This document shows positions 1-21,375 of a stretch of 32,000 bases of DNA, one piece after another. Every line of letters begins with the position of its first letter. Positions within the stretch are counted from its first letter, which is position 1. A program made the translations under genes and the position numbers. Source of the stretch: Candidatus Harpocratesius repetitus (lineage in GTDB: Archaea; Asgardarchaeota; Lokiarchaeia; Sigyniarchaeales; Promethearchaeaceae). The stretch covers positions 900,001-932,000 of the forward strand of contig JAIZWK010000001.1 in the NCBI GenBank assembly GCA_021498095.1. The letters run 5' to 3'. The notes beneath the pieces are model-generated. The model was not told where the DNA came from and searched no databases. It saw nothing but the letters and a program-made list of their open reading frames with translations.

Positions 1-1257
1 GCAGATGTGAAGATTTTGAAAGATCCAACTGGAAAATTACATACAGAAGGAAAAATTGCTGAATTTCTTAGTGTACAGAGGGATAAATTTGAAAAGCTTT
101 CTCAAATTCTCCAACGTCGACCAGAATCAAGTGGGCTTCTACCGATTAATATGATTAATCGCTTGGAAAATTCAACAGAGGTAAAATTTATTGGAATGGT
201 TATCGATAAGAGGCAAACAAGTTCTCGAAATTATCTGATTGAAATGGAGGATACGACTGGACATTGTATGACTTTGGTTCAACAAAAACATTCTGAGGTT
301 TATCAGTTAGTTGATTATCTTTTACCTGATCATGTGGTTATTATCGATGGTTACCTAAGCGTAAATGAAAAAACAAACTCTCGTATTATTTTAGTTAACG
401 ATATTATTTTTCCAGATTCTCCCAACTCCCATAAAGTGCAGTTTCCTGAAGAAGATATTGCAATGTGCTTGATATCAGATACTCATTTTGGTAGTGTAGA
501 GTGGTTAGAAAAAATATGGTTTCGATTTGTGGATTATTTAAATTGTAGAGTAGGAAATGATCGTCAAAGAACACAAGCAGGAAAAATTAAATATTTATGC
601 ATTGCAGGAGATATTGTTGATGGAATTGGAGTTTACCCCAACCAAGAAAAACATCTACTAATTAAAGATATTTATAAACAATATGAAGCGTGTGCCGAGT
701 ATTTAGCTGAAATACCTGAGTATATTGAAATAATTTTAACACCAGGAGATCATGATGCTGTTCGGAAAGCTGTGCCCGCACCGGCTCTGTCTAAAGATTT
801 TGCTAAACCATTGTATGATAGAGGGTATAAACTTTTAGGAAATCCTGCTATGGTAAGTTTACACGGAATAAAAACCCAGCTCTTTCATGGCACTTCATTG
901 ATTGATTTGAATATGGCTATTCCGGGAATGACAAATGAAGATCCATACAAAACTATGAAAGAATATATCCGAGCGCGCGATCTTGTTCCTACTTATGGGA
1001 AAAAGACTGAAATTGCACCTGTAGAAAAAAATTGGTTTGTATTAGATGAATTACCTGATATTCTACATACAGGACATCTTCACAAAAACGGATTTGGTAA
1101 ATATCACGGTATTTTATTAGTAAACTCTGGCTGTTTTCAAGATCAAACAGAATTTATGGATAGTCTTGGAATTATCCCGGATTATGGTAAACCTACAGTA
1201 ATTAATATGAAAAATAAGTTACAAGCCAAGGTTATTGATTTGGTTGGTAGTAGGTGA
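1..1257 (+). CDS. polB: DNA polymerase D small (exonuclease) subunit DP1, 5'-truncated by the window edge
   Basis: Frame is open from base 1. OB-fold-like N-terminal part, then calcineurin-like phosphoesterase motifs SDTHFG, GDIVDGIGVYPNQ, PGDHD, HG, HTGHLH and a C-terminal NSGCFQDQT typical of archaeal DP1. Confidence 0.93.
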   Translation, partial: ADVKILKDPTGKLHTEGKIAEFLSVQRDKFEKLSQILQRRPESSGLLPINMINRLENSTEVKFIGMVIDKRQTSSRNYLIEMEDTTGHCMTLVQQKHSEVYQLVDYLLPDHVVIIDGYLSVNEKTNSRIILVNDIIFPDSPNSHKVQFPEEDIAMCLISDTHFGSVEWLEKIWFRFVDYLNCRVGNDRQRTQAGKIKYLCIAGDIVDGIGVYPNQEKHLLIKDIYKQYEACAEYLAEIPEYIEIILTPGDHDAVRKAVPAPALSKDFAKPLYDRGYKLLGNPAMVSLHGIKTQLFHGTSLIDLNMAIPGMTNEDPYKTMKEYIRARDLVPTYGKKTEIAPVEKNWFVLDELPDILHTGHLHKNGFGKYHGILLVNSGCFQDQTEFMDSLGIIPDYGKPTVINMKNKLQAKVIDLVGSR

Positions 1258-1264
1258 AATAAAA

Positions 1265-1990
1265 ATGGTGATGAAACCTCCTAGTGAATTAAATCAACTA
1301 TTACTTTATTGGTGGAAAATAATTGATCGAGACGAGATAAATAAAGATGATTTACAAAACTTTATCGCTTTTGAATTATTTACCTTTTCTTTGGAGAAAA
1401 CTAAAGCAACGATTCAAGAAGCTATAGATAGGAAACTTTTAATCTATGATCCAATTACAGATTTAGTTCGTTTAAATTCAACTTTACAAACTAAGTATAA
1501 TGAATGGTTGAAAGGAGGAATTACAAAAACTAAAAAAATGCTTCAAGTTTTGCGTAAGCGTTGGCGTGAACCTCTTCAATTTAGGAAGGAAGACATTTTT
1601 TCAGTTTATTATCAAGATTTGGTTGATCCATTAGTTCATAATAGAGCATCGAGAATCCTTAGTTCGAGAGTGAAAATAGACAAAAGTAATTTCGATGATA
1701 TTGGGAATTCGGGAGATTTGGATAATATCAATAATTTAGATGATTTAAAACTGTTTATTTCTGGGAAAATTAAGGGCTATCCCTTTCAGATTGATTCATC
1801 CCGCAAGATTATACAGCATGTATGTCCTGAATTTAAGCAATATCGAGCAAAAGAGAAATCTTTTTGTCCTCATCTAGCTCGTTTAATTTTGAAAATAAAC
1901 CTCAAATATCCAGAAATTACGCTTGGGCTACTTAAAAGAATTGCTCAAACAAAGGAATCTTGGATATTTTCTACCGAAATTAATATATAA
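1265..1990 (+). CDS. DUF2240-like N-terminal domain plus C-terminal SWIM-like zinc finger
   Basis: ATG at 1265 follows a GGTGA SD overlapping the DP1 stop (ORF track starts at 1235). N-terminus (FIAFELFTFSLEKTKATIQEAIDRKLL) resembles archaeal DUF2240. C-terminal HxC-x14-CxH (QHVCPEF...FCPHL) resembles a SWIM-type Zn site. Confidence 0.55.
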   Translation: MVMKPPSELNQLLLYWWKIIDRDEINKDDLQNFIAFELFTFSLEKTKATIQEAIDRKLLIYDPITDLVRLNSTLQTKYNEWLKGGITKTKKMLQVLRKRWREPLQFRKEDIFSVYYQDLVDPLVHNRASRILSSRVKIDKSNFDDIGNSGDLDNINNLDDLKLFISGKIKGYPFQIDSSRKIIQHVCPEFKQYRAKEKSFCPHLARLILKINLKYPEITLGLLKRIAQTKESWIFSTEINI

Positions 1991-2007
1991 AAAAGAAGTT
2001 ATTTTTT

Positions 2008-3351
2008 CTACATTAACTTTCTGAATTTCTTACCACTAAATCGAGTAATTTTATTTCGAATACATGAAGGTGGTATATTCATTAATTCTGCGATTCTCGA
2101 CTCGTTTTGTAGGTAATCTTGCAGATCTCTCAAAGGTACATTAGATTTTATAAATTTCGTTCGACCGTATCGTCCAGTAGATTTTACTCTTGCATTAACC
2201 ATACCTGAAAGATCTAACTCACGAATTAATTCTGAAACACGGCGTTGTGTCAATTTATTTAGTCCTGGTATTAATTCAACCATTTCACAGTATGTATTGT
2301 AAATATCGCCGGTGATAATTGTTTCTTGATTTAAATGCTTTTCAAGTTGATAAATACTAAGAAGGATCATTTTACTTTGTAAAGGAAGTGCTTCACAGTA
2401 TTCTTTCATTTTATCCTTTTCCATATTATCTTGAGCAAAATACACATGATCGATAGTAACTTGCTTGGCATTTCGACGTTCTGCAAATTCACCCGCTTTT
2501 CGGAGCAAATCTAATGCTTTTCGTGCATCACCATGTTCTTTGGCGGCTAAAGCTGCACAAAGTGGAATTACACTTGGATCGAGTACATCAGGATAAAATG
2601 CTCTTGCAGCGCGCTGTTCCAAAATGTCTTTAATTTCCAAAGCGTTGTATGCAGGAAAAACAATTTCTTCTTCACCCAAACTGCTTAAAACTCGAGGATC
2701 TAAAGCGCTTTTAAAATTAAGGACATTTGAAATACCGATTATATTTACTTTGGTCGATTTCAAATGAGAGTTGATTCGAACCAGATTATATAATACATCT
2801 TGAGATTTTCGAGCCTTTTTAACAAGCACATCAATTTCATCAAGTATAATGAAGCAATTTCCTTTAAGATTTGTATTAATTTTTTCAATAAGAGTATCAA
2901 AAACCACATCAATCGGCCAACCGGCTATTGGGACGGGATTATCAGGGTCAATTTCATCGCAAATTTTAGCTAATACGCGATATCCTGTATTCACTTCTTG
3001 ACAATTTAAAAAGATCCATTTACTTTCAGGAATATTTGCATTACGGCATTGTCGATTCAAATGATTACTGACATAACTAATTACGGCTGTTTTCCCGGTA
3101 CCTGTTTTTCCAAAAATAAAAATATTTGATGGCATGGAATTTTTTAGGCTGCATGCCACAATCTCAGCAATTTTCTGAATTTGATGATTGCGATGAGGTA
3201 ATAATGATGGTACAAATTCAGGGCGTAACACATCACGTTCATGGAATATCTCTTCTTTCGACATAAAATCTTTGAAATAATTATCAATATCAAACATTAT
3301 CACACACATCTCTTTTAATTCATACTTCCTCACTCGAAAGGAAGGAATCAA
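2008..3351 (-). CDS. cdc6: Orc1/Cdc6 replication initiator (true start probably 3309 or 3297)
   Basis: Walker A GKTGTGKT, Walker B IILDEID, DPRVLSSL, HGDARKALDLLR sensor-2, and a C-terminal winged helix (LTQRRVSELIRELDLSG...GRYGRTKFI). Confidence 0.96.
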   Translation of the reverse strand: MIPSFRVRKYELKEMCVIMFDIDNYFKDFMSKEEIFHERDVLRPEFVPSLLPHRNHQIQKIAEIVACSLKNSMPSNIFIFGKTGTGKTAVISYVSNHLNRQCRNANIPESKWIFLNCQEVNTGYRVLAKICDEIDPDNPVPIAGWPIDVVFDTLIEKINTNLKGNCFIILDEIDVLVKKARKSQDVLYNLVRINSHLKSTKVNIIGISNVLNFKSALDPRVLSSLGEEEIVFPAYNALEIKDILEQRAARAFYPDVLDPSVIPLCAALAAKEHGDARKALDLLRKAGEFAERRNAKQVTIDHVYFAQDNMEKDKMKEYCEALPLQSKMILLSIYQLEKHLNQETIITGDIYNTYCEMVELIPGLNKLTQRRVSELIRELDLSGMVNARVKSTGRYGRTKFIKSNVPLRDLQDYLQNESRIAELMNIPPSCIRNKITRFSGKKFRKLM

Positions 3352-3658: not shown

Positions 3659-4756
3659 TTGATCAAAATTCTGTTCAATGACGCATTAGAATCATTTTTA
3701 AATATTCCATCAACCCTATTACGATGTCTCCGCTATTATCTTTCTCCCGAAGGGAAACAAATTTTAAAATCTTTTCAGAATTTCTGCGAAATTGATAATA
3801 TTCACCGGTTGATTTTGGTTGGACATAGTTATAATTATTTTGCTTCCTTAATACCCTATTATTATATTAATTCTTCCATTGAAGTTTCTGTATTGCAAGC
3901 AAAACAAGTGAAATCCAGAGAATGTATTCTTATTGAACCAGACGAGTTTGTAACATACTGTCACCCGCATAAATATGCTAAAGATGCGGTTTTTGTGTTT
4001 GTTACACGCACAGGTTCAACACAAGTTTATCAAAGCATTGAAAAACTTCATAAATTTGAGATTGATCATCAAAAAATTGGGGTTGTGTCAAATAACCCTA
4101 AATTAAAATCCAATTGTAATTTTTATTTTCCGCTTCTCTGTGGTGATGAAAAAGTTATTGGTTCTAATTCTTTCCCTGCAGATATTTTAGTATTGTATTT
4201 TCTCACAAGAGCTTTTATGAATCAAGAACCCATTCCAAAATCAATAGAAGATGAAATCCGACAAATGATTTTTGAAATCAAGTTTTATCAACAAGATTGG
4301 AAATTTCATGTATCGAGTTTAAATGATTTTTTGGGAGTAGATTATAATTTTCTGTATTTCATTTCAAAAGGAACAAGTTTATCTGTGGCATATCAAGGTG
4401 CTTTAAATAGCAAGGCATATTTACGACTTTTTGGAGAAGGAATTTCTATTGGATTGTTTCTTCATGGACCTTTTCAAATAATCGACAACTCCTTTCGTTG
4501 CATTTTATTGGTCAGTGATGAAACCAGTATCGAAGATACAGTAAATTTAATAAATATTGCAAGCAAAAAACTTGGATCAGGTCGAATTATTTTAATTAAC
4601 AATAGTCGTGCTCTATCTTCATTAGGTCGAGCTAATAGAAATGTGTGGGTATTTGAACATACAACTCAAAATCCCTTTTTGGCTCCAATTTTTGAAATGG
4701 TTGTTTTAAATTACTTATTCCTTGATCAAGCACTTCGTCGGGGGGTAATTGAATAA
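3659..4756 (+). CDS. SIS-domain (GlmS isomerase/AgaS/FrlB-like) protein, degenerate active site
   Basis: Two SIS subdomains. VTRTGST at the SQSGET phosphate loop. AYQGALNSKAYLRLFGEGISIGLFLHGPF aligns without gaps to GlmS [28 protein letters not shown]. TTG start. Confidence 0.8.
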   Translation: MIKILFNDALESFLNIPSTLLRCLRYYLSPEGKQILKSFQNFCEIDNIHRLILVGHSYNYFASLIPYYYINSSIEVSVLQAKQVKSRECILIEPDEFVTYCHPHKYAKDAVFVFVTRTGSTQVYQSIEKLHKFEIDHQKIGVVSNNPKLKSNCNFYFPLLCGDEKVIGSNSFPADILVLYFLTRAFMNQEPIPKSIEDEIRQMIFEIKFYQQDWKFHVSSLNDFLGVDYNFLYFISKGTSLSVAYQGALNSKAYLRLFGEGISIGLFLHGPFQIIDNSFRCILLVSDETSIEDTVNLINIASKKLGSGRIILINNSRALSSLGRANRNVWVFEHTTQNPFLAPIFEMVVLNYLFLDQALRRGVIE

Positions 4757-5877
4757 TGTCAAAAAAGAATGATTCATTTATTTGGCCATTTTCATTTCAA
4801 CAAATTCGAGATGATTTCTTTAATGAAATTGAAAGTTTACACAACTGCGCTGATCAGTATTTCAGTGGTAAATTTTCTTCACTTTTTAGTAAATTGAGGA
4901 AAATACTCATGGATTATGAAATTTCTAAAGTTTTTTTTATCGGGAATACATACAGTTATTTTGCCAGCCAAATCGCTTCACAAATGATAATGGTTGATCA
5001 GAATGAGATATCCTTTTCTCTTTACTGTGTAGAATTAAGTGAATTTTTCGATTACATGCTTCCTCAAGAACCTGAAAAAGCTCTTTATATTTTTATTTCC
5101 AAATCAGGAAAATCACGATTTCTACAAGAATGTGTAGATCATTTACGTTTATCAAAAATTTCACCAGAGACAGTTTGGCTTATAACAAATAACCAGAATA
5201 CATCATTGGCTTCATTTATTTCAAATAGATTTCCTATGTTTGTTTCCAGCGAAATAGTATTAGGAACAAAATCATTTATTAATACTCTATTCATAGTTTA
5301 TTTAATTACACGAGTTTTATTAGGAAAAGAGGCTGTCGATTCACACCTTCAAAGAAAAATTCATATTTTTTTGTCTGATTTGGCAAATTTCCGTGAAAAT
5401 TGGGAAAAACCCACTGAATATATTGAGTCATTTTTAGGTGATTTTGATGATTTATATATTATTTCGAGAGATCCCGCTTCTATGGCTGCAGCATCACTAA
5501 GTGCATTACATGCAAAGAGTTTTACTCGACTTCTTACTGAAGGTACTTATATTTCTCATTTTTTCCATGGACCATTTCAAATTTTAGAAAAAAAGATTTA
5601 TCCAAGAGAAATTAGAATTCTTATGTTTGTTGGTGATCGAACGACAAATGAAGCCACAATTTATCGATTAGTCAAATTGATACTAGAACGAGCTGGAAAA
5701 GTGCTTGTTTTAAGCAATAACCCTGCTGTTTCTGATACTCTTAGAAAAAACAAGAGAATTTCGTTGGTTGATTTTACTGCAGATATTCAGGTATTATCCC
5801 CAATATTCGAGTTATTTATTTTACAATTTGTACTACTAAAAATTGCAGAAAAAAAAGGATTGCTACAAAAAAGTTAA
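4756..5877 (+). CDS. Second SIS-domain protein (tandem paralog), degenerate active site
   Basis: TAATG overlap with the previous gene. Motifs FIGNTYSYFAS, FISKSGKS, LGTKSFINT, FFHGPF; same architecture as the upstream paralog. Confidence 0.8.
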   Translation: MSKKNDSFIWPFSFQQIRDDFFNEIESLHNCADQYFSGKFSSLFSKLRKILMDYEISKVFFIGNTYSYFASQIASQMIMVDQNEISFSLYCVELSEFFDYMLPQEPEKALYIFISKSGKSRFLQECVDHLRLSKISPETVWLITNNQNTSLASFISNRFPMFVSSEIVLGTKSFINTLFIVYLITRVLLGKEAVDSHLQRKIHIFLSDLANFRENWEKPTEYIESFLGDFDDLYIISRDPASMAAASLSALHAKSFTRLLTEGTYISHFFHGPFQILEKKIYPREIRILMFVGDRTTNEATIYRLVKLILERAGKVLVLSNNPAVSDTLRKNKRISLVDFTADIQVLSPIFELFILQFVLLKIAEKKGLLQKS

Positions 5878-6067
5878 TGGTTTCACTGTTTACGAGAAGT
5901 AGTTGAAAATAGTAATCGGGCATACCCTTCACTAGTAAAATGTGATCTAAGCCCATCATCTCCTCAATGGTCATTGCAGTAAATCGATTATCACCTACAG
6001 TTGAAAAATGATTATTTAACGGTTCAAGGAGATCATGATTGCTGACATGTATTACACTGAATAACAT
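5816..6067 (-). pseudogene. Fragment homologous to part of the 8981-9448 ORF
   Basis: HDLLEPLNNHFSTVGDNRFTAMTIEEMMGLDHI matches DDLVEPINDHFGGISDTRFEPMTLEQMMGLDHI at 20/33 identical residues. The 3' end runs antisense into the SIS gene. Confidence 0.6.
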
Positions 6068-6200
6068 TCATCAATCCTTCAAATGTAAGTGCTTCAAATC
6101 TATAATGAGGAAATTCGGCTTCGAAGACCGATTGTAGTAGTGAAAAAGACAATGTTATAAAGTTAAGAAATTTCACATTATTGTTTGCATCCCACCTCAT
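6033..6200 (-). pseudogene. 55-codon fragment carrying a third copy of the RFxx(L/M)TxEx(L/M)M motif (not in the ORF track)
   Basis: Hand translation: MRWDANNNVKFLNFITLSFSLLQSVFEAEFPHYRFEALTFEGLMNVIQCNTCQQS*. Overlaps the 5816-6067 fragment in another frame. Confidence 0.45.
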
Positions 6201-6476
6201 TTGATTTTATGATATTTTTCATTAAGAATGCGTCCTTTTTGAAAGAATTCGATAGAGCAAACTTTTTGAATCACTCCGTCTTAACCGATTAAAACTTCGA
6301 TCAGGGCGAATTGGACTTAATTCAGATTGAATCCAGCGTGAGAGCCGCAAGTATAGAGTTTCAAGATCAAGATTAGGGAGAAGCATTAATTCGATTATAT
6401 GATTTTGTACCGCAGTAATTAAATTTGAAATGCTCACATAATAAGATTTTTGGGCATCAAAATTGAAGAGAAATAT
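6188..6476 (-). mobile_element. IS4-family transposase C-terminal remnant with candidate right terminal repeat
   Basis: The frame extends to an in-frame TAA at 6477-6479: IFLFNFDAQKSYYVSISNLITAVQNHIIELML...LSPIRPDRSFNR...SKRTHS*. The PIRPxRSFxR tail is typical of IS4-family transposase C-termini. A CAT-starting end (CATCCCACCTCATTTG, + strand 6188) lies 34 bp past the stop. No matching left end found. Confidence 0.5.
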
Positions 6477-6501
6477 TTAAGTGCATTTGGCTATCAGCGA
6501 A

Positions 6502-6560
6502 GTGGGTCGAAGAGGTCGAAAATAGTCAAAATTGGTCGAATGGGGTCGAATGGGTTGAAA
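6502..6560. repeat. Six ~10-bp tandem units with core GGTCGAA
   Basis: gtgggtcgaa / gaggtcgaa / aatagtcaaa / attggtcgaa / tggggtcgaa / tgggttgaaa. Confidence 0.8.
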
Positions 6561-6585
6561 TGATATTATCAATAAGAGCGAACGG

Positions 6586-7590
6586 TTAAATCAAGTAATA
6601 CGGTGAGTTTGGAAGCGGTTTTTTACGTTTTTCTAGGATTGCAATAAGGACGGGGTCGGATGGTCCTGCGTGTGTTTGGAGGTATTCGATTGCGGACGGG
6701 GTGGCGCATGCGATCAACCATTGGCGGTGTTCTTCTGTAAATCCGTTAGGAAATCGGCGGTCATCCAGTTTGGCGTCGGGATTTTTTTTGGTTGTGATGT
6801 ATGCGATAGCCAAATCGGGGATAGTTGGGGTGAAAAGAGGGACGAAATGGGGGTCATACTTATCGCACCAATCTTGGTATGTCCATAGTGTAAATTCAGA
6901 AAAACGGGGTTTTAATATGGAACCTACAAAATGTTGAACAATAAAATCAGGGTGGTAGTAATATTCTCCATTACGATATGCATGAAGAAATTTTTCCCTA
7001 TCGAATGGTTTTATGTTAAGAAAGGCTTTATCGAATTTTTGGTTAATTTTCATATAATCAAATTCCTCATTATTATCAATTGGCACACCCTGTTTATCAT
7101 ATAGTGGGATCGGCCAATTCGGGTAAATTTTTCGCATGAGGAACTGCAATAACCAGTATGTATCGAGCGGTAGACCATTTTCATCACAGGGCACAATTTT
7201 GGACGATGGTAACGGCATTACAAAATGGTCTTGTAAACTACCGGTTTTATATTGGCGCAAATCGACCCTGAAACGGTAATAATAGTCCGAAATGATGAAA
7301 AAATATTTGTATTCATCAGGTGCGGGGCAAGGATTTGACGAATCATCAAAAGGCATTATAATAGGCATGGGGCTCATAGGATCGAGTTGTCGTTGATAGT
7401 AAAAGTATCGCCAGAATGGATGAAGAGGTATACCGTATTCATCGCGTTCGAGTGTTTCGGGTAGAGGATATCCCAAATACATTTCGTATGGGACGCTACC
7501 GTCTCTCGGGCGGTAATATTTAACACCGTCTTTTTCGATTTCTCTAAAAATGCGAAATTGTTCAAAATATTCTGGAGGGAAATATGACAT
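6586..7590 (-). CDS. Orphan Pro/Tyr/Asp-rich protein with repeated DxxG(I/L/V)P(L/I) motifs
   Basis: 334-aa ORF with ATG start in the GC-richer island. Motif copies DEYGIPL (res 50-56), DENGLPL (136-142), DKQGVPI (165-171). No family recognised. Confidence 0.7.
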   Translation of the reverse strand: MSYFPPEYFEQFRIFREIEKDGVKYYRPRDGSVPYEMYLGYPLPETLERDEYGIPLHPFWRYFYYQRQLDPMSPMPIIMPFDDSSNPCPAPDEYKYFFIISDYYYRFRVDLRQYKTGSLQDHFVMPLPSSKIVPCDENGLPLDTYWLLQFLMRKIYPNWPIPLYDKQGVPIDNNEEFDYMKINQKFDKAFLNIKPFDREKFLHAYRNGEYYYHPDFIVQHFVGSILKPRFSEFTLWTYQDWCDKYDPHFVPLFTPTIPDLAIAYITTKKNPDAKLDDRRFPNGFTEEHRQWLIACATPSAIEYLQTHAGPSDPVLIAILEKRKKPLPNSPYYLI

Positions 7591-7678
7591 TTTTTCTTGT
7601 TCTTTCTTCTATTTTTTCATTTTTCAATTTTTAATTTTTCAGTTTTTTTATTCTATATATTATTTGTATTTTACATAT

Positions 7679-7708
7679 AAAAAAAGTGCCCAAAACGTTT
7701 TTGGGGCA
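7679..7708 (-). terminator. Hairpin plus U-tract, intrinsic-terminator-like
   Basis: Minus strand TGCCC-CAAAAACGTTTT-GGGCA followed by CTTTTTTT, ~36 bp after the stop of the 7745-8851 ORF. Confidence 0.45.
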
Positions 7709-7744
7709 AAAATTATTGGAGATATTCATTTTGCTGCTTGTAGA

Positions 7745-9448
7745 TTACATGGGCCGGGTGAAGATGCGGACCGCTTGGGCATATTTTTTATATATGGGCA
7801 TTTTTTGCACTTCAGTCCAAGAGAGTCCTTGTGCTAACAACATGTGTAACTCCTCACGGTTTTTCCACCAAGTTTTCATTTTTGGATTTTTGGGGTCAAT
7901 TTCTATTTCATATTTTTTGGTATTGATATCAACGGTTGTGCTCATTACTCCATAAGTGGCTTTGGTGCGGGCGATCAATTCCGAATTGGTGAATCTGCAA
8001 CACCGTGCGAAGGATTTTTTCTTTCCGGTGTATTTCCAAATTTTCCAATTGAAATCAGGCACTTTAACATCTTTACCGAGTAAAAACAGTGCGATTTTCA
8101 ATGTATCTCCTTCAAATGCGTCGTAAAGACCCGGGTATTCTTGTTCAACGGCTTTTTTGACTTTGGGTAGGTTGAGGAGCGCCATAGCTTGAAACATGCG
8201 GAAAATTTCGTTGCTTATCAATCCAGGTTCGATCTTTGCAATTTTATCGGCGTTTTGATAATACCATTTCATGTGTGATGAGATACCGAATACAACGGTT
8301 GGAATACAATACTTTTCTACTTGAACTCCGACTTTTATATTCGTTTCTGGTCCGTAATTTTCCACCACGTAGTTTAAGTTAACAAGTACTTTACCTGCAT
8401 CGACGACTTCAAATGCTATGGGCCATCCATTAACTATCACAGCAAAATCGAGTTGCCCCGCATTACGAATATAATGATGGGACATAATCGACTGCATATC
8501 GTAGGGCCCTTTTAAATAGCCGAGCACATCCCCAAATTGACCTATACCTTCTCGAATACGAATGGCTTCAGCGATTTTGAAGAGCTCCAAGTAGGGAATG
8601 GTACGAGTTTCAAGCACGGACATAGTGCGGATGTTGCGTGTGCCTTCGGGGTCGGCAACGGTTCCCCAAAACATTTTGATATAAGCCGCTTTTGAATACA
8701 TCAACATGGGATTGATGTCGAGTTCGGATAATCGGTATAAAATCGGGGCATAGCGGCCCGAAAATGGTAAGCGATCTCCTCCATTGGCGGAGAAACAGTT
8801 ATAACGGTTCCAAATTGATTGAAAGAACCTACTGATTCCATCGAGTTTCACTATACGCTTTACACGGGTGAATGATTTTCCGTTCCATGTTTTTGACGGG
8901 TTATATTCTTCTGGGTTTCCTGTATAGTCCGAATTACCATTTTTGAATAGGTTTGGGGTATTCTCCAGAAAACCGAAGAGTTAAGCAAAGTATAGAATGA
9001 TGTGATCAAGCCCCATCATTTGTTCCAAGGTCATGGGCTCGAACCTGGTATCGCTTATGCCACCAAAATGGTCATTGATCGGTTCCACGAGGTCATCTTC
9101 AATGCCGGTAATGGATTGATAAAATCGATTATAGAATTCCATCACGATATAGATTTTATCTTTCTGGCCGATCTGATCGAGTTTCGGGCCAGTAATATAT
9201 TCATTTTTACTATTTGCAATGGGTTTACTGTATTTAATCAGCTTATTCAGAATGGTATAAAAGTTGGCCCATTTTTGGGCGAATTTACGATGGGCATTAT
9301 TTTCTTGTGTGCTCGAGGAAAGCATTATTTTTTCGGCAAAATCTTTACACCAATTATATCTTCCTTTAGATCTTCCTTTGGAAATTAGAATTTCCAAGTG
9401 AGAATTAGAATTGAGGCGAAAAATCATGATATTACCAAATTGAAGCAA
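7745..9448 (-). pseudogene. 567-codon frame interrupted by a single TAA (8981-8983); C-terminal part has a PD-(D/E)xK-like motif
   Basis: The 155-aa and 368-aa track ORFs share a frame (9448-8851=597). The 43 codons between them are stop-free (LFGFLENTPNLFKNGNSDYTGNPEEYNPSKTWNGKSFTRVKRI). GQLDFAVIVNGWPIAFEVVD resembles the D...E core of restriction-like nucleases. Confidence 0.55.
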
Positions 9449-9631
9449 GAATCTTACTAAATTAATAAATCAAATTAGAAATATTGTGTGTGTTTTGAAA
9501 TCAAAGAGATTCAAATGAAAAATCTACAATATTCAAGGATGGTAATAAAAAAAAAACTTAAATTTATGAAAAGTTCGGTTATACTCCGATTCTTTTCCAT
9601 ATTTGGTTTATCTCTATTTTTTAGATTTAAA

Positions 9632-10621
9632 TTATGATAAATTTTCCTCTTGTTTATAGATTTCAATGGCTAATTGCTGCAAAGCGCTTTCAACCTTTTC
9701 TCCTGTTTTTGCTGAAACTTCTATGAATCCAATCAAATTATGCTCTTTTACATACTTTAGTGCCTCATCTCGGGAGACTTTCCGCTCTAAATCAATTTTG
9801 TTTCCTACTAAAAGCGTGGGAATCCGCCCGACATTTTCTTCTAATTCTTCCAACCATTTGTCTAAATTACGAAACGATACGGGGTTATTTACATCATAAC
9901 ACAAAAGGCAACCTTTTGCATCCCGGTAATAAATACCCCGAATTTTTTCATAATGGACTTGACCTGCTGCATCCCAAAGATTGATTTTTGCCCGAAATCG
10001 ATATGTTCCTGAATATAAAATATCATTTGGTGTATATGTACAAATTATTTCTTTACTTCCAAAATCGACTCCTAATGTAGTTTTCAAATCTTGTTTAAAG
10101 TAATCATCAGTAAATCGCACTTTAATGGCGGTTTTTCCTGTAGCTGAATCTCCAATTTCAATAATTTTAAATGAATATTCATTTTTTAACAGCGATCTTA
10201 CTTCATGATTCGCCCAAGGTTCAATGTCTGCACCGGTAATCAAATCTTCTTGGATTTCTTCAATAGTTTCAAATTCAAGAATATATCCAAGAGAGTAGGT
10301 ATCACTTTCCATATTTTGCAGGGCGTTTCGATTCACATTTTTAATTTTTCCTGTGCAAGGAGAATTTAACGTGGTAATTCCATTTGTAGTTGTGATGACC
10401 GCAAAGGGTTCCCCAATTTTGACTGAAGTTTCAGAGAGAATTGCTAATTCCGTTGGTTTTTTCAAGAATGCAAAGCCTATCTGATCCAATCCAACAATTT
10501 TTTTGACCCGATCGACATAAACATGTTGCGTTTTCGAGTACAAGAGATGTTCGGGAAGAGAATATCTTCCATCTGCAATTATGACCAATGTTGAGCCGCT
10601 CCTAACAGTATATTGATCCAT
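9632..10621 (-). CDS. Fusion of a GcvH-like (glycine cleavage H fold) domain and a Rab-like small GTPase
   Basis: N-terminal YSLPEHLLYSKTQHVYV...VKIGEPFAVITTTNGITTLNSPCTGKIKNVN...DTYSLGYI follows the GcvH pattern. C-terminal G1 GDSATGKT, G2 TTLGVDF, G3 WDAAGQ, G4 NKID, G5 SAK, plus the Rab-type YYRDA. Confidence 0.88.
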   Translation of the reverse strand: MDQYTVRSGSTLVIIADGRYSLPEHLLYSKTQHVYVDRVKKIVGLDQIGFAFLKKPTELAILSETSVKIGEPFAVITTTNGITTLNSPCTGKIKNVNRNALQNMESDTYSLGYILEFETIEEIQEDLITGADIEPWANHEVRSLLKNEYSFKIIEIGDSATGKTAIKVRFTDDYFKQDLKTTLGVDFGSKEIICTYTPNDILYSGTYRFRAKINLWDAAGQVHYEKIRGIYYRDAKGCLLCYDVNNPVSFRNLDKWLEELEENVGRIPTLLVGNKIDLERKVSRDEALKYVKEHNLIGFIEVSAKTGEKVESALQQLAIEIYKQEENLS

Positions 10622-10763: not shown

Positions 10764-12239
10764 TTATCCTTTTGTAACCCCAATCGGAACTAGTCGAGCT
10801 ACTTTTTTAATAATACCTAAATCATGACTTACATTTACGACTTGATCGATATTTTTGTATGCTAAAGGAGCTTCTTCTGCTAATACTTTTAAAGAAGCAG
10901 CTTTTACTGCAATTCCTTTTTGATTTAATTCTTGCTGAATATTCTTACCATAGAATTTACGCTTCGCTTTAGAACGACTCATTTCCCGCCCTCCACCATG
11001 GGCTGTGCTGGCAAAACTTAATTCCATTGCTTTTTCTTGACCAACACATAAATATGAAGCAGTTCCCATACTTCCTGGAATTAATACTGGTTGTCCGATA
11101 GATCTGTATTTTTCTGGTAAATCTGGATGATTGGGAGGAAATGCACGGGTGGCACCTTTTCGATGAACGTTAACCATCTCACGTTTTCCACCGCCTACAT
11201 CATGCTCTTCTATTTTTAAGATATTATGAGCAACATCATAAACCAATTCCATTTGTTCAGGTGGAATATGCAAAACTTCATTAAATGCTTCACGTGTCCA
11301 ATGCATTATAATATGCCTATTGGTATAGGCAAAATTTGCCGCAGCGCGCATTTGTGCTAAATAACGATCTGCTTCTTTTGTCCCAGAAATAACATAACTA
11401 AGTTCTCTGTCTGGAGGAACAATGTTTTTCCGATGCATCATATGATCAATTTCTTGTAGAGAGTCTGTGCAAATTTGATGACCCATAGCACGAGAACCGG
11501 TATGAATCATCACAGTTACTTGGTTTTCCACTATGCCCATGATTTTTGCGGCTTCTTCATCAAATATTTTCTCCACTCTTTGAATTTCAATAAAATGATT
11601 TCCTGATCCTAATGATCCTAATTGTCGGAGTCCTCGCGCTTTCGCCTTGTTTGAAACCAGACTAGAATCGGCTCCCACAGTTCGACCTTGATCTTCGCAG
11701 AAATATCGATCTTTATCAAATCCATAGCCATGCTTAATTGCCCAATCAATACCTTCATCTAAAACTTGATTTAAATCATTTTCTGTAATATGCAATTTTC
11801 CTTTTGATCCTAAACCACTGGGTATATGCCTAAATAAAGATTCTGTTAATGCAGGAATCTGTGGTGCAATATCTGAATAATTTAATCCAGTACGCAGCAA
11901 GCGCACTCCACAGTTGATATCATATCCAACACCTCCTGGACTTATAGCACCTCCATCAACACTTGTAGCTGCTACTCCTCCAATACAAAAACCATATCCT
12001 TGATGGGCATCAGACATAGCGATTACATGCTTACGAATCCCTGGTAGGCAGGCAACATTCGTAATTTGATCGATACTTCGATCATTCTTAATATGTTGCA
12101 TAAGATAGTCGTTTGCGTACACTCGCGCTGGTACTTTCATAGTAAAATTGTATATTTTTTCATTATACTTTATTACCTTCATTTCAGGTTCTATTTGGTA
12201 AATTCCTTCTGCTATTTTTTTTGGTATCATATAAATCAC
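10764..12239 (-). CDS. rtcB: RtcB tRNA-splicing RNA ligase
   Basis: DAHQGYGFCIGG, GYDINCG, GSGNHF, HTGSR, HNI, HRKGATRA, PGSMG, STAHGGGR; archaeal-type architecture. Confidence 0.97.
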   Translation of the reverse strand: MIYMIPKKIAEGIYQIEPEMKVIKYNEKIYNFTMKVPARVYANDYLMQHIKNDRSIDQITNVACLPGIRKHVIAMSDAHQGYGFCIGGVAATSVDGGAISPGGVGYDINCGVRLLRTGLNYSDIAPQIPALTESLFRHIPSGLGSKGKLHITENDLNQVLDEGIDWAIKHGYGFDKDRYFCEDQGRTVGADSSLVSNKAKARGLRQLGSLGSGNHFIEIQRVEKIFDEEAAKIMGIVENQVTVMIHTGSRAMGHQICTDSLQEIDHMMHRKNIVPPDRELSYVISGTKEADRYLAQMRAAANFAYTNRHIIMHWTREAFNEVLHIPPEQMELVYDVAHNILKIEEHDVGGGKREMVNVHRKGATRAFPPNHPDLPEKYRSIGQPVLIPGSMGTASYLCVGQEKAMELSFASTAHGGGREMSRSKAKRKFYGKNIQQELNQKGIAVKAASLKVLAEEAPLAYKNIDQVVNVSHDLGIIKKVARLVPIGVTKG

Positions 12240-20811: not shown

Positions 20812-21375
20812 TCAATTGTTAATCAGAGCTTCATATAATTTAATAAAAACTTCTTCCACACCTTCAAAAGTTTTTGATGAAACAAATAAATGGGCATAAA
20901 ATTTATCCTTATTTGGAAATGTTTGCAGGCGCGCTTCAAATTGAGTGCGAAATTGCTCAATAATATCATTTGATGAAATTAGATCTTTTTTAGCACCTAC
21001 TAATATTATTGGTATGTCTGGATTTTCATTTAAAATTAATTGATTCCATTTCTCAATACTATCAAATGATTTATACCTGGTGAGATCATACATGATTATC
21101 GCACCCTTTATACCTTTAATATATGAATCATGAAGGAATTGGAATCTTTCTTGTCCACCAAGATCAAAAGTCAATAAAGATTCAGAATTTGATTGAGGAT
21201 AAGCCGAGATTTGAGAATCTTCATTTGGTTTCATTTCCACACATGCAAAGTCCACCCCTACCGTCATTTTAGATGATTCATTAAAATTATGATGGCATTT
21301 TGCTTCGAGTAGAGTCGATTTACCAACACCACCTTCACCTAGAAGTGCAATTTTGATCAAACGAGGAGAACCCAT
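20812..21375 (-). CDS. Rab/Ras-like small GTPase
   Basis: G1 GEGGVGKS, G2 TVGVDF, G3 DLGGQERF, G4 variant AKKD, G5 SSK. No C-terminal prenylation motif. Confidence 0.92.
   Translation of the reverse strand: MGSPRLIKIALLGEGGVGKSTLLEAKCHHNFNESSKMTVGVDFACVEMKPNEDSQISAYPQSNSESLLTFDLGGQERFQFLHDSYIKGIKGAIIMYDLTRYKSFDSIEKWNQLILNENPDIPIILVGAKKDLISSNDIIEQFRTQFEARLQTFPNKDKFYAHLFVSSKTFEGVEEVFIKLYEALINN

Follow-up and report, generated by a model that had tools for sequence, protein, structure and literature searches.

An H-protein-like domain without the lipoyl lysine fused to a Rab-like GTPase in Candidatus Harpocratesius repetitus

The window analysed here is a stretch of 32,000 nucleotides (nt) of Candidatus Harpocratesius repetitus (assembly GCA_021498095.1, contig JAIZWK010000001.1, positions 900,001 to 932,000). 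Its minus strand carries a gene for one polypeptide in which a domain resembling GcvH, the H protein of glycine cleavage, precedes a Rab-like small GTPase domain. The features of the locus are listed in table 1, and residues are numbered according to an open reading frame (ORF) of 329 codons on the minus strand (9632..10621). This ORF, described in the initial annotation as continuous and 329 amino acids (aa) long, is present in the sequence; its first codon is probably not the start of the protein. Codon 12 is a TTG (10588), at which nearly all of the 30 aligned full-length relatives start with MV..., and in more distant orthologs exactly this codon reads ATG. The alternative ATG (10621) lies 33 nt further out and its equivalent is missing in the closest ortholog, whose gene likewise starts with TTG. 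An AGGAG motif upstream of the TTG is kept in the Harpocratesius ortholog. On the basis of the ortholog starts, the AGGAG motif and the lack of conservation of the outer ATG, the true start is most likely the TTG and the product has 318 aa.

Table 1. Features of the window and of related loci elsewhere. Positions without a locus handle are those of the window.
Feature	Position	Strand	Remarks
GcvH-like/Rab-like GTPase coding sequence, most likely extent	9632..10588	-	318 codons plus stop; from the ORF and ortholog starts
Shine–Dalgarno-like AGGAG	10599..10603	-	10 nt upstream of the TTG start; read from the sequence, putative function
GcvH-fold (H-protein-like) domain	10178..10588	-	residues 12-148; AlphaFold2 (AF2), Foldseek, weak Pfam/NCBIfam, phmmer
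Hairpin equivalent to the lipoyl hairpin, ITTTNGITTLNSPCTG	10349..10396	-	residues 76-91; column counts
Asn80 codon, lipoyl-lysine position	10382..10384	-	alignment with lysine-bearing GcvH proteins
Rab-like small GTPase domain	9635..10177	-	residues 149-329; Pfam Ras, nearest solved Rabs; no C-terminal Cys
G1/P-loop GDSATGKT	10130..10153	-	residues 157-164; G157, G162, K163, T164 invariant (103/103)
Elongated beta2-beta3 (interswitch) hairpin, about 10 residues, family-specific	10004..10033	-	residues ~197-206
G3/switch II DAAGQ	9959..9973	-	residues 217-221; D217, G220, Q221 invariant (103/103); catalytic-type Gln
G4 NKID	9791..9802	-	residues 274-277; N, K, D invariant (103/103)
G5 SAK	9707..9715	-	residues 303-305; S, A 103/103; K 100/103
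Two adjacent double-SIS genes (GlmS-isomerase-domain-like)	3659-4756, 4756-5877	+	convergent with the GTPase gene; mutually divergent
Lineage-specific insertion	5878..9631		3.75 kb; three ORFs (334, 368 and 155 aa), no family matches, higher G+C
RtcB RNA ligase gene	10764..12239	-	Pfam RtcB, E 9e-168; same strand, upstream
Single-domain Ras/Rab-like GTPase gene	20812-21375	-	187 aa; Pfam Ras, E 8.5e-29; about 10 kb away
Metallophos-family gene, 251-aa ORF, Cdc6/ORC gene	1-3351		PolD large-subunit gene next in relatives
Lineage-B remnant	G000:C1:1492951-1493340 (L010:1993-2370)	-	outside the window
Second partner-family gene of the genome	G000:C1:3658257-3659177 (L011:1450-2370)	-	glutaredoxin-like domain fused
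Gene of a 315-aa GCV_H protein	G000:C1:1600955-1601902 (L016:934-1881)		lysine-bearing
GcvH-like gene (150-153 aa) plus lipoate-protein ligase gene	L030:5998-7582; L027:4856-6408		in other Asgard genomes; lysine-bearing; beside a Nuo/Mbh-like operon

The fusion is widely conserved. There are about 115 full-length relatives (44–92% identity, 315–320 aa) in many assemblies, including those of Promethearchaeum syntrophicum and Lokiarchaeum ossiferum, whose genomes are closed, and metagenome-assembled genomes named Harpocratesius, Helarchaeota, Hodarchaeota and Sigynarchaeota. Counting matches in open frames no shorter than about 290 aa, it is present in 14 of 400 genomes of the phylum, mostly from the window's own family. 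The gene is also fully contained in Logan contigs of the likely source sample (share 1.00). The initial annotation had suggested such a survey and named an assembly misjoin as what might undo its reading; the survey finds the fusion conserved, and since independent assemblies, closed genomes included, have yielded more than 100 full-length orthologs, a misjoin is ruled out. Relative to an ortholog with 92% identity, the ratio of non-synonymous to synonymous substitution rates (dN/dS) is 0.084 for the N-terminal domain and 0.064 for the GTPase domain, and both domains are under purifying selection. When the window gene (9632-10588) is compared with its closest ortholog (L002:8001-8957), dS is 0.23 in the H-domain half and 0.90 in the GTPase half, about a fourfold difference, possibly caused by recombination or by a constraint at the RNA level.

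The architecture has been recorded before. A published survey of the 74 small GTPases in P. syntrophicum MK-D1 (Tran et al. 2024, Commun Biol 7:273; PMC10933270) includes WP_147661646.1 and WP_147662223.1, both tagged 'GCVHG' in its supplementary sequence list; its main text files unusual architectures as '?' (domains of unknown function), and the paper gives the label without treating the lysine, the lineages or the gene context. The two proteins correspond to P0021 and P0040 among our family sequences. As in the window protein, the small GTPase is immediately preceded by a GcvH-like domain within a single polypeptide of about 317 aa. WP_147661646.1 is the ortholog of the window protein, with 66% identity, in the same clade (lineage A, see below) and in the same gene neighbourhood, in which RtcB is followed at some distance by the SIS pair, Cdc6 and PolD. 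No main-text account of the architecture was found in the literature on Asgard archaea, GTPases and GcvH or glycine cleavage. The family is Asgard-specific, and its architecture is already catalogued yet unstudied; the claim that it is not known from characterized proteins holds as far as characterization goes, although the 'GCVHG' label has been published. The paralog lineages, the confinement of the heterodisulfide reductase (Hdr) context to one of them, lineage B, the association of lineage A with SIS genes and the joint loss of lineage B and its Hdr genes are new here.

The N-terminal domain has the H-protein fold, predicted as a barrel-sandwich hybrid with a C-terminal helix. Taken alone, the family models score it weakly: Pfam GCV_H matches residues 35-134 with 17 bits (E 0.0055), under the gathering score of 22.2, and the NCBIfam models for GcvH and 'GcvH-related protein' give 15.5–19.9 bits against cut-offs of 116–117, so that no family cut-off is reached. 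The fold is nevertheless confirmed by structure prediction, by phmmer and by precomputed PF01597 matches on several orthologs. The AF2 model of residues 12-148, based on an alignment of 32 sequences, has a mean predicted local distance difference test score (pLDDT) of 94.5. Searched with Foldseek against the PDB, it yields 22 matches with E <1e-3, all of them GcvH or GcvH-L, with a template modelling (TM) score, by target length, of 0.6–0.76; lipoyl and biotinyl domains of the ordinary kind appear only further down (E ~0.1). A phmmer search of the domain alone against 1.8 billion representatives retrieves the fusion family and then GCV_H proteins at E 7e-6 to 9e-4, which themselves score E ~1e-24 on Pfam GCV_H, and a profile of the domain retrieves about 1,800 GcvH proteins. 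The N-terminal 'LP..L.Y...H', the 'SP.SG' strand and the 'Y..G' motif are common to the fusion domain and to GcvH (PF01597, TIGR00527).

The fusion domain differs from GcvH, besides its fusion to a GTPase and its scores below the family cut-offs, in lacking the conserved lipoyl lysine (E-S-V-K type) and the Glu at position -3 from it. Column counts were made over 103 full-length family members, aligned with six lysine-bearing references. The lipoyl Lys of lysine-bearing GcvH aligns with Asn80 of the hairpin ITTTNGITTLNSPCTG. Over the 103 members this column holds N in 23, Q in 18, R in 17, K in 12, S in 9, T in 6, I in 5 and other residues in the remainder; no position of the hairpin is less constrained, and the Glu at -3 is retained in only six members. 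The flanks of the hairpin are conserved in a motif specific to the family: I76 (90/103), T78 (78/103), G81 (100/103), T84 (93/103), L85 (94/103), P88 (103/103) and G91 (103/103). These counts support the reading of the domain as an H-protein fold incapable of acting as a conserved lipoyl carrier. The initial annotation was thus right about the fold of the N-terminal 140 or so residues and about the replacement of the lipoyl Lys by Asn in this protein; the check that it proposed, whether Asn is conserved at the lipoyl site, shows this column to be the most variable of the hairpin. The host genome encodes a canonical lysine-bearing GcvH (150 bits) and an LplA-type ligase, both away from the locus, as well as a second lysine-bearing GCV_H protein. 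The organism is thus able to lipoylate, and the missing lysine is specific to the fusion. That second protein, of 315 aa, has a Cys-rich N-terminal part and a C-terminal GCV_H domain (118 bits); its gene sits among small Cys-rich and ferredoxin-like genes, and represents another non-canonical use of the H fold.

The sequence of the C-terminal domain is that of a competent Rab-like switch, with a Pfam Ras match over residues 152-322 (E 1.9e-42). All five G boxes described in the initial annotation are found, G2 being T182; G1 to G4 and the Ser-Ala of G5 are invariant in the 103 full-length relatives. The nearest solved structures are Rab11, Rab18, the Thorarchaeota Rab 7EZB, Rab2 and Rab1 (E 1e-32 to 1e-27), and all 60 solved-structure matches listed are Rab/Ypt proteins or the Thorarchaeota Rab, which places the domain nearer to Rabs than to Ras, Rho, Arf or Ran. 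The Rab-type motifs LGVDF, KINLW and YYRDA can be read from the sequence, the RabF motifs having been judged by eye. In its complete G1–G5 set the domain resembles the Rabs. It differs from them by the N-terminal H-like domain, by the absence of a C-terminal Cys motif for geranylgeranylation and by a beta2-beta3 hairpin that is about 10 residues longer. As had been stated for this protein, there is no prenylation tail: none of the 103 members has a Cys in the last eight residues, and the window protein ends ...KQEENLS. The elongation of the hairpin is conserved in the family. In 86 of the 103 members the segment from DFG to WD comprises 28 residues; in the Ras profile match, 171 residues cover 161 model positions, and the AF2 model places the flanking strands at residues 186-196 and 207-217. 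The full-length AF2 model (pLDDT 84; predicted TM-score (pTM) 0.59; switch I poorly predicted) connects the last helix of the H fold (130-144) with strand 1 of the G domain (148-157) by three residues.

In a tree of N-terminal domains, all fusion domains form one clade (support of 99 in the Shimodaira–Hasegawa-like approximate likelihood ratio test, SH-aLRT) and canonical GcvH proteins, including the one of this genome, form another (97). The sequences thus point to a single origin of the fusion domain. The tree, of the general kind that the initial annotation had proposed, separates the fusion clade from canonical GcvH and gives no resolved sister group. By profile score, the nearest proteins are stand-alone Asgard proteins of 140–153 aa (58–83 bits), ordinary GcvH scoring at most 58 bits. 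They came from a genome search of the 400 genomes of the phylum; in the protein databases, a profile search for close stand-alone relatives returned only family fragments and ordinary GcvH. The stand-alone proteins share with the fusion domain an N-terminal 'Y.LPDDLYY' and a C-terminal 'G..I..W...E' helix, and they keep the lysine, in motifs such as AEAGK and IETGKW. Both loci with annotated neighbours place them next to a lipoate-protein ligase gene and Nuo-like genes. The gene pairs at L030 and L027 look like an LbpA-like carrier/ligase module in Asgard archaea.

LbpA, found in loci of the sHdr sulfur-oxidation type, has a strictly conserved lysine, to which its cognate ligase attaches lipoate (Cao et al. 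2018, eLife, PMC6067878). The fusion family recalls it in several respects: its domain is GcvH-like yet distinct from canonical GcvH, its lineage-B copies lie in a locus of the Hdr/TusA/DsrE type, and its nearest stand-alone relatives are lysine-bearing and lie beside a dedicated LplA ligase. It differs from LbpA in that the fusion domain has lost the lysine and that the window, with its lineage-A copy, shows neither an Hdr nor an LplA gene. Because the nearest profile relatives are lysine-bearing stand-alone carriers, the fusion domain appears to be a branch of true lipoyl carriers, comparable to LbpA-type proteins, that is devoid of the lysine.

The family comprises several paralog lineages, which we defined in a tree of the 103 members and compared by gene neighbourhood in about 30 loci. 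The window protein and P0021 belong to lineage A; lineage B contains P0040, one Harpocratesius protein and one L. ossiferum protein; a third group, lineage C, holds another L. ossiferum protein, and the Hel/Hod-type sequences are basal. All 11 lineage-A loci with flanking sequence, from 10 genomes of at least five genera and including one genome from another family, have the convergent pair of double-SIS genes just downstream, and in three of the 11 one or two genes of a further family, here called the partner family, lie between the GTPase gene and the SIS pair. All nine lineage-B loci have HdrC-HdrB-HdrA-FlpD alongside and a 169-aa partner gene downstream. The third group is represented by two full loci, including that of the L. 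ossiferum copy, and two more on short contigs, with distant Hdr paralogs and TusA several kb off; copies of lineages B and C are found near TusA/DsrE sulfur-relay and Hdr genes. The Hel/Hod-type loci have neither the SIS pair nor an Hdr neighbourhood. Only three positions (146, 148 and 322) are conserved within each of the lineages A and B yet differ between them, and none is on the hairpin.

For the window copy, an Hdr neighbourhood was considered and rejected: the window shows no gene for Hdr, FlpD, TusA or DsrE, and since the Hdr context belongs to lineages B and C, the Hdr association does not apply to this gene. Nor was any actin or glycine-cleavage gene found near the window locus, and none of the roughly 30 loci inspected showed a cytoskeletal or membrane-remodelling gene, the neighbours being SIS, Hdr, sulfur-relay and housekeeping genes. 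The links to one-carbon or lipoate metabolism and to the cytoskeleton suggested in the initial annotation find no support for this copy, the GcvH and lipoate ligase of the host being encoded elsewhere.

The SIS pair is the only persistent neighbour of the lineage-A gene. Its products match the NCBIfam glmS and Pfam SIS models far below cut-off and resemble the GlmS isomerase domain only distantly (47–51 bits, against cut-offs above 380); they match the GlmS isomerase domains in the PDB at E ~1e-5. They keep a T-R-T-G-S-T motif resembling a phosphate loop, and at the position aligned with the catalytic Glu of the 'KLKE' motif of GlmS there is an Ala. Orthologs of one of the two proteins, SIS365 (at least 46% identity), occur in 12 of the 400 genomes, all 12 of which carry the fusion family, and three genomes of the same family that are devoid of the fusion also have no SIS365 ortholog.

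The window gene is the only intact member of the family in the host genome. Outside the window lies a remnant of a lineage-B gene (table 1), in which a deletion of about 630 bp leaves the first 12 codons abutting the final third of the GTPase domain; it also has a 10-bp insertion near the 3' end. The remnant and the partner gene are both covered, without any difference, by one Logan contig of the likely source sample. The genes flanking the remnant are 91–96% identical to those of an intact Harpocratesius locus. The AsnC-Fer4-FlpD-HdrA-HdrB-HdrC block beside it is gone, leaving a 32-residue AsnC fragment and a high-copy repeat in its place; the gene of the 169-aa partner has stayed intact, with 96% identity to its ortholog. 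Although a single case, this supports a functional link of lineage B with its Hdr genes, and shows lineage A to be retained independently of lineage B. The only other partner-family member of the genome, at L011, has an N-terminal glutaredoxin-like CxxC domain fused to the partner domain, which is 48% identical to the partner beside a lineage-A copy (L019), compared with 42–44% for lineage-B partners.

We propose that the protein is a functional two-domain signalling protein, a GTP-gated adaptor with a pseudo-carrier domain as its docking surface, a reading to which we give an even chance. It best suits the combination of an H fold that lacks the lipoyl lysine yet retains a conserved hairpin, a link of rigid appearance to a competent GTPase, selection on both halves, and paralog lineages with different metabolic gene sets. 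The N-terminal domain would descend from lysine-bearing lipoyl carriers of the H-protein type and would no longer carry lipoate, having been kept as a protein-docking ('pseudo-carrier') surface; its last helix would join it almost directly to strand 1 of a competent Rab-like GTPase, and the GTP/GDP state would control binding by the H-like domain or by the whole protein. The data show the fold, the missing lysine, the complete G boxes, the selection and the lineages with their gene contexts; we infer the docking function, the nucleotide gating and any functional tie to the SIS proteins. The purifying selection on the N-terminal domain fits its re-use as a non-carrier module, so that, of the earlier suggestion that the H fold is re-used as a module on the GTPase, the general idea is consistent with selection and with the loss of the lysine, and the metabolic and cytoskeletal links attached to it are unsupported. 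As lineage A is genomically tied to the SIS pair, of a sugar-phosphate-binding type, rather than to heterodisulfide reductase, its output is more likely metabolic or regulatory than concerned with vesicle traffic.

Several points weigh against this proposal. The docking partner of the N-terminal domain is still hypothetical, and the full-length model, with its low-confidence switch I, does not fix the predicted interdomain geometry. The SIS genes are convergent with the GTPase gene and are not co-transcribed with it. SIS genes and fusion are confined to one clade, and their co-occurrence could be inherited synteny; it is therefore suggestive and not proof. The few differences between lineages A and B speak against an N-terminal domain specialized for SIS or Hdr docking, and fit a shared partner better. 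Since these differences are only three and spare the hairpin, the docking partner may be common to both lineages, for example a member of the partner family, in which case the neighbouring enzymes would not be direct partners. A language model gives a weak lead from the partner family to Roadblock/LAMTOR2. Complex prediction for the window protein and the 169-aa partner-family protein of the host gave a score of 0.17 against a mark of 0.32, which speaks neither for nor against binding. A bolder reading combines the lineage-A fusion, both double-SIS proteins (taken as altered in catalysis) and, in certain genera, partners resembling roadblock into a metabolite-sensing GTPase switch of Asgard archaea, a prokaryotic analogue of nutrient signalling of the Rag/Ragulator type, and adds that the H domain might be the prokaryotic root of ABITRAM; we think this quite unlikely.

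The main rival to the adaptor reading is that the H-like domain acts as an intramolecular regulator on the switch/interswitch face of its own GTPase, packing for instance on the elongated beta2-beta3 hairpin, as an inhibitor, an element resembling a GTPase-activating protein or guanine nucleotide exchange factor, or a dimerization module, and has no external partner of the H-protein type. The predicted three-residue connection between helix 130-144 and strand 148-157, the conserved 10-residue interswitch elongation unique to the family and the near absence of A/B-specific differences, as expected for an internal interface, all favour it. The full-length model (pTM 0.59, poor switch I) shows no confident interface, however, and the conserved, solvent-exposed flanks of the hairpin would be unexplained unless they were part of one; no GcvH fold is known to regulate a GTPase. 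We regard this regulator as unlikely, and the idea that the protein is a membrane-traffic or cytoskeletal Rab, the H-like domain replacing the prenyl tail for localization and possibly linking to actin in the manner of ABITRAM/Simiate, an idea that goes back to the initial annotation, as very unlikely. The closeness of the G domain to Rab11, Rab18, Rab2 and Rab1 and the missing prenylation Cys would suit such a Rab. So would the description of ABITRAM/Simiate (FAM206A) as a eukaryote-specific relative of GcvH, its likely ancestor, with a reported non-carrier role (PMC3859600). However, the nearest relatives found for the N-terminal domain are prokaryotic lipoyl carriers, and the inspected loci hold no cytoskeletal or membrane-remodelling gene. 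ABITRAM itself is stand-alone and eukaryotic, and a specific kinship with the fusion domain would be hypothetical; it is not named among the best 120 profile matches of the N-terminal domain, and there is no ABITRAM structure among the Foldseek matches in the PDB.

It is highly improbable that the domain is still a covalent carrier through another residue, such as a persulfide on Cys89 of the SPCTG motif, or through the lysine in a minority of members. Cys89 is present in 69 of the 103 members, and copies of lineages B and C lie near sulfur-relay and Hdr genes, as such a carrier would lead one to expect. But the other 34 members, including all Hel/Hod-type sequences, have Val or Ile at this position, which aligns with the Val/Leu of the GcvH 'PVSG' strand, a position that is probably buried; the lysine column is unconstrained, and the window copy has no sulfur-relay neighbours. 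That the gene is an artefact or in decay, as a misjoin of GcvH and GTPase or with a neutrally drifting relic domain, has in its favour only the sub-threshold Pfam GCV_H score and is already refuted by the independent orthologs, the low dN/dS of the N-terminal domain, the confident model of its fold and the Logan contigs.

Asgard archaea encode dozens of eukaryote-like small GTPases, none of known function, and the 'GCVHG' family is among the few in which an extra domain and gene neighbourhoods offer a handle on function. In the adaptor reading, a Rab-like switch would have acquired, as a lysine-less module, a carrier-protein fold of central or redox metabolism, with paralog lineages tied to different metabolic gene sets, Hdr for B and the double-SIS proteins for A. 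Should metabolic enzymes or sensors be under the control of the switch, some of the Asgard 'Rab' expansion would be older than, and unrelated to, roles in membrane traffic, which would bear on how eukaryotic GTPase signalling arose. Cultured relatives hold orthologs of both lineages, so the question is directly testable.

The other neighbours of the gene vary more. The RtcB gene is immediately upstream in the window and at the loci L002, L035 and L047, lies 5–6 kb off in MK-D1-like genomes and is absent at L019, L034 and L051; together with an M18 peptidase gene it forms the immediate upstream neighbourhood in the window's genus only. The 3.75-kb insertion between the SIS pair and the GTPase gene is absent at the closest ortholog locus, that of Harpocratesius, where a gap of 52 nt separates the end of the SIS gene from the GTPase gene, and is not part of the conserved module. 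Its 155-aa ORF (8981..9448) was considered as a partner gene and rejected, as it has no similarity to the partner family and lies inside this insertion. The 334-aa and 368-aa ORFs have diverged adjacent paralog pairs elsewhere in the genome (for example near 48-50 kb, 62 kb and 783-785 kb), which suggests that they form a multi-copy two-gene cassette. The window also encodes a second, single-domain Ras/Rab-like GTPase. The block at the beginning of the window, which is syntenic across the family, may mark a region of replication origin.

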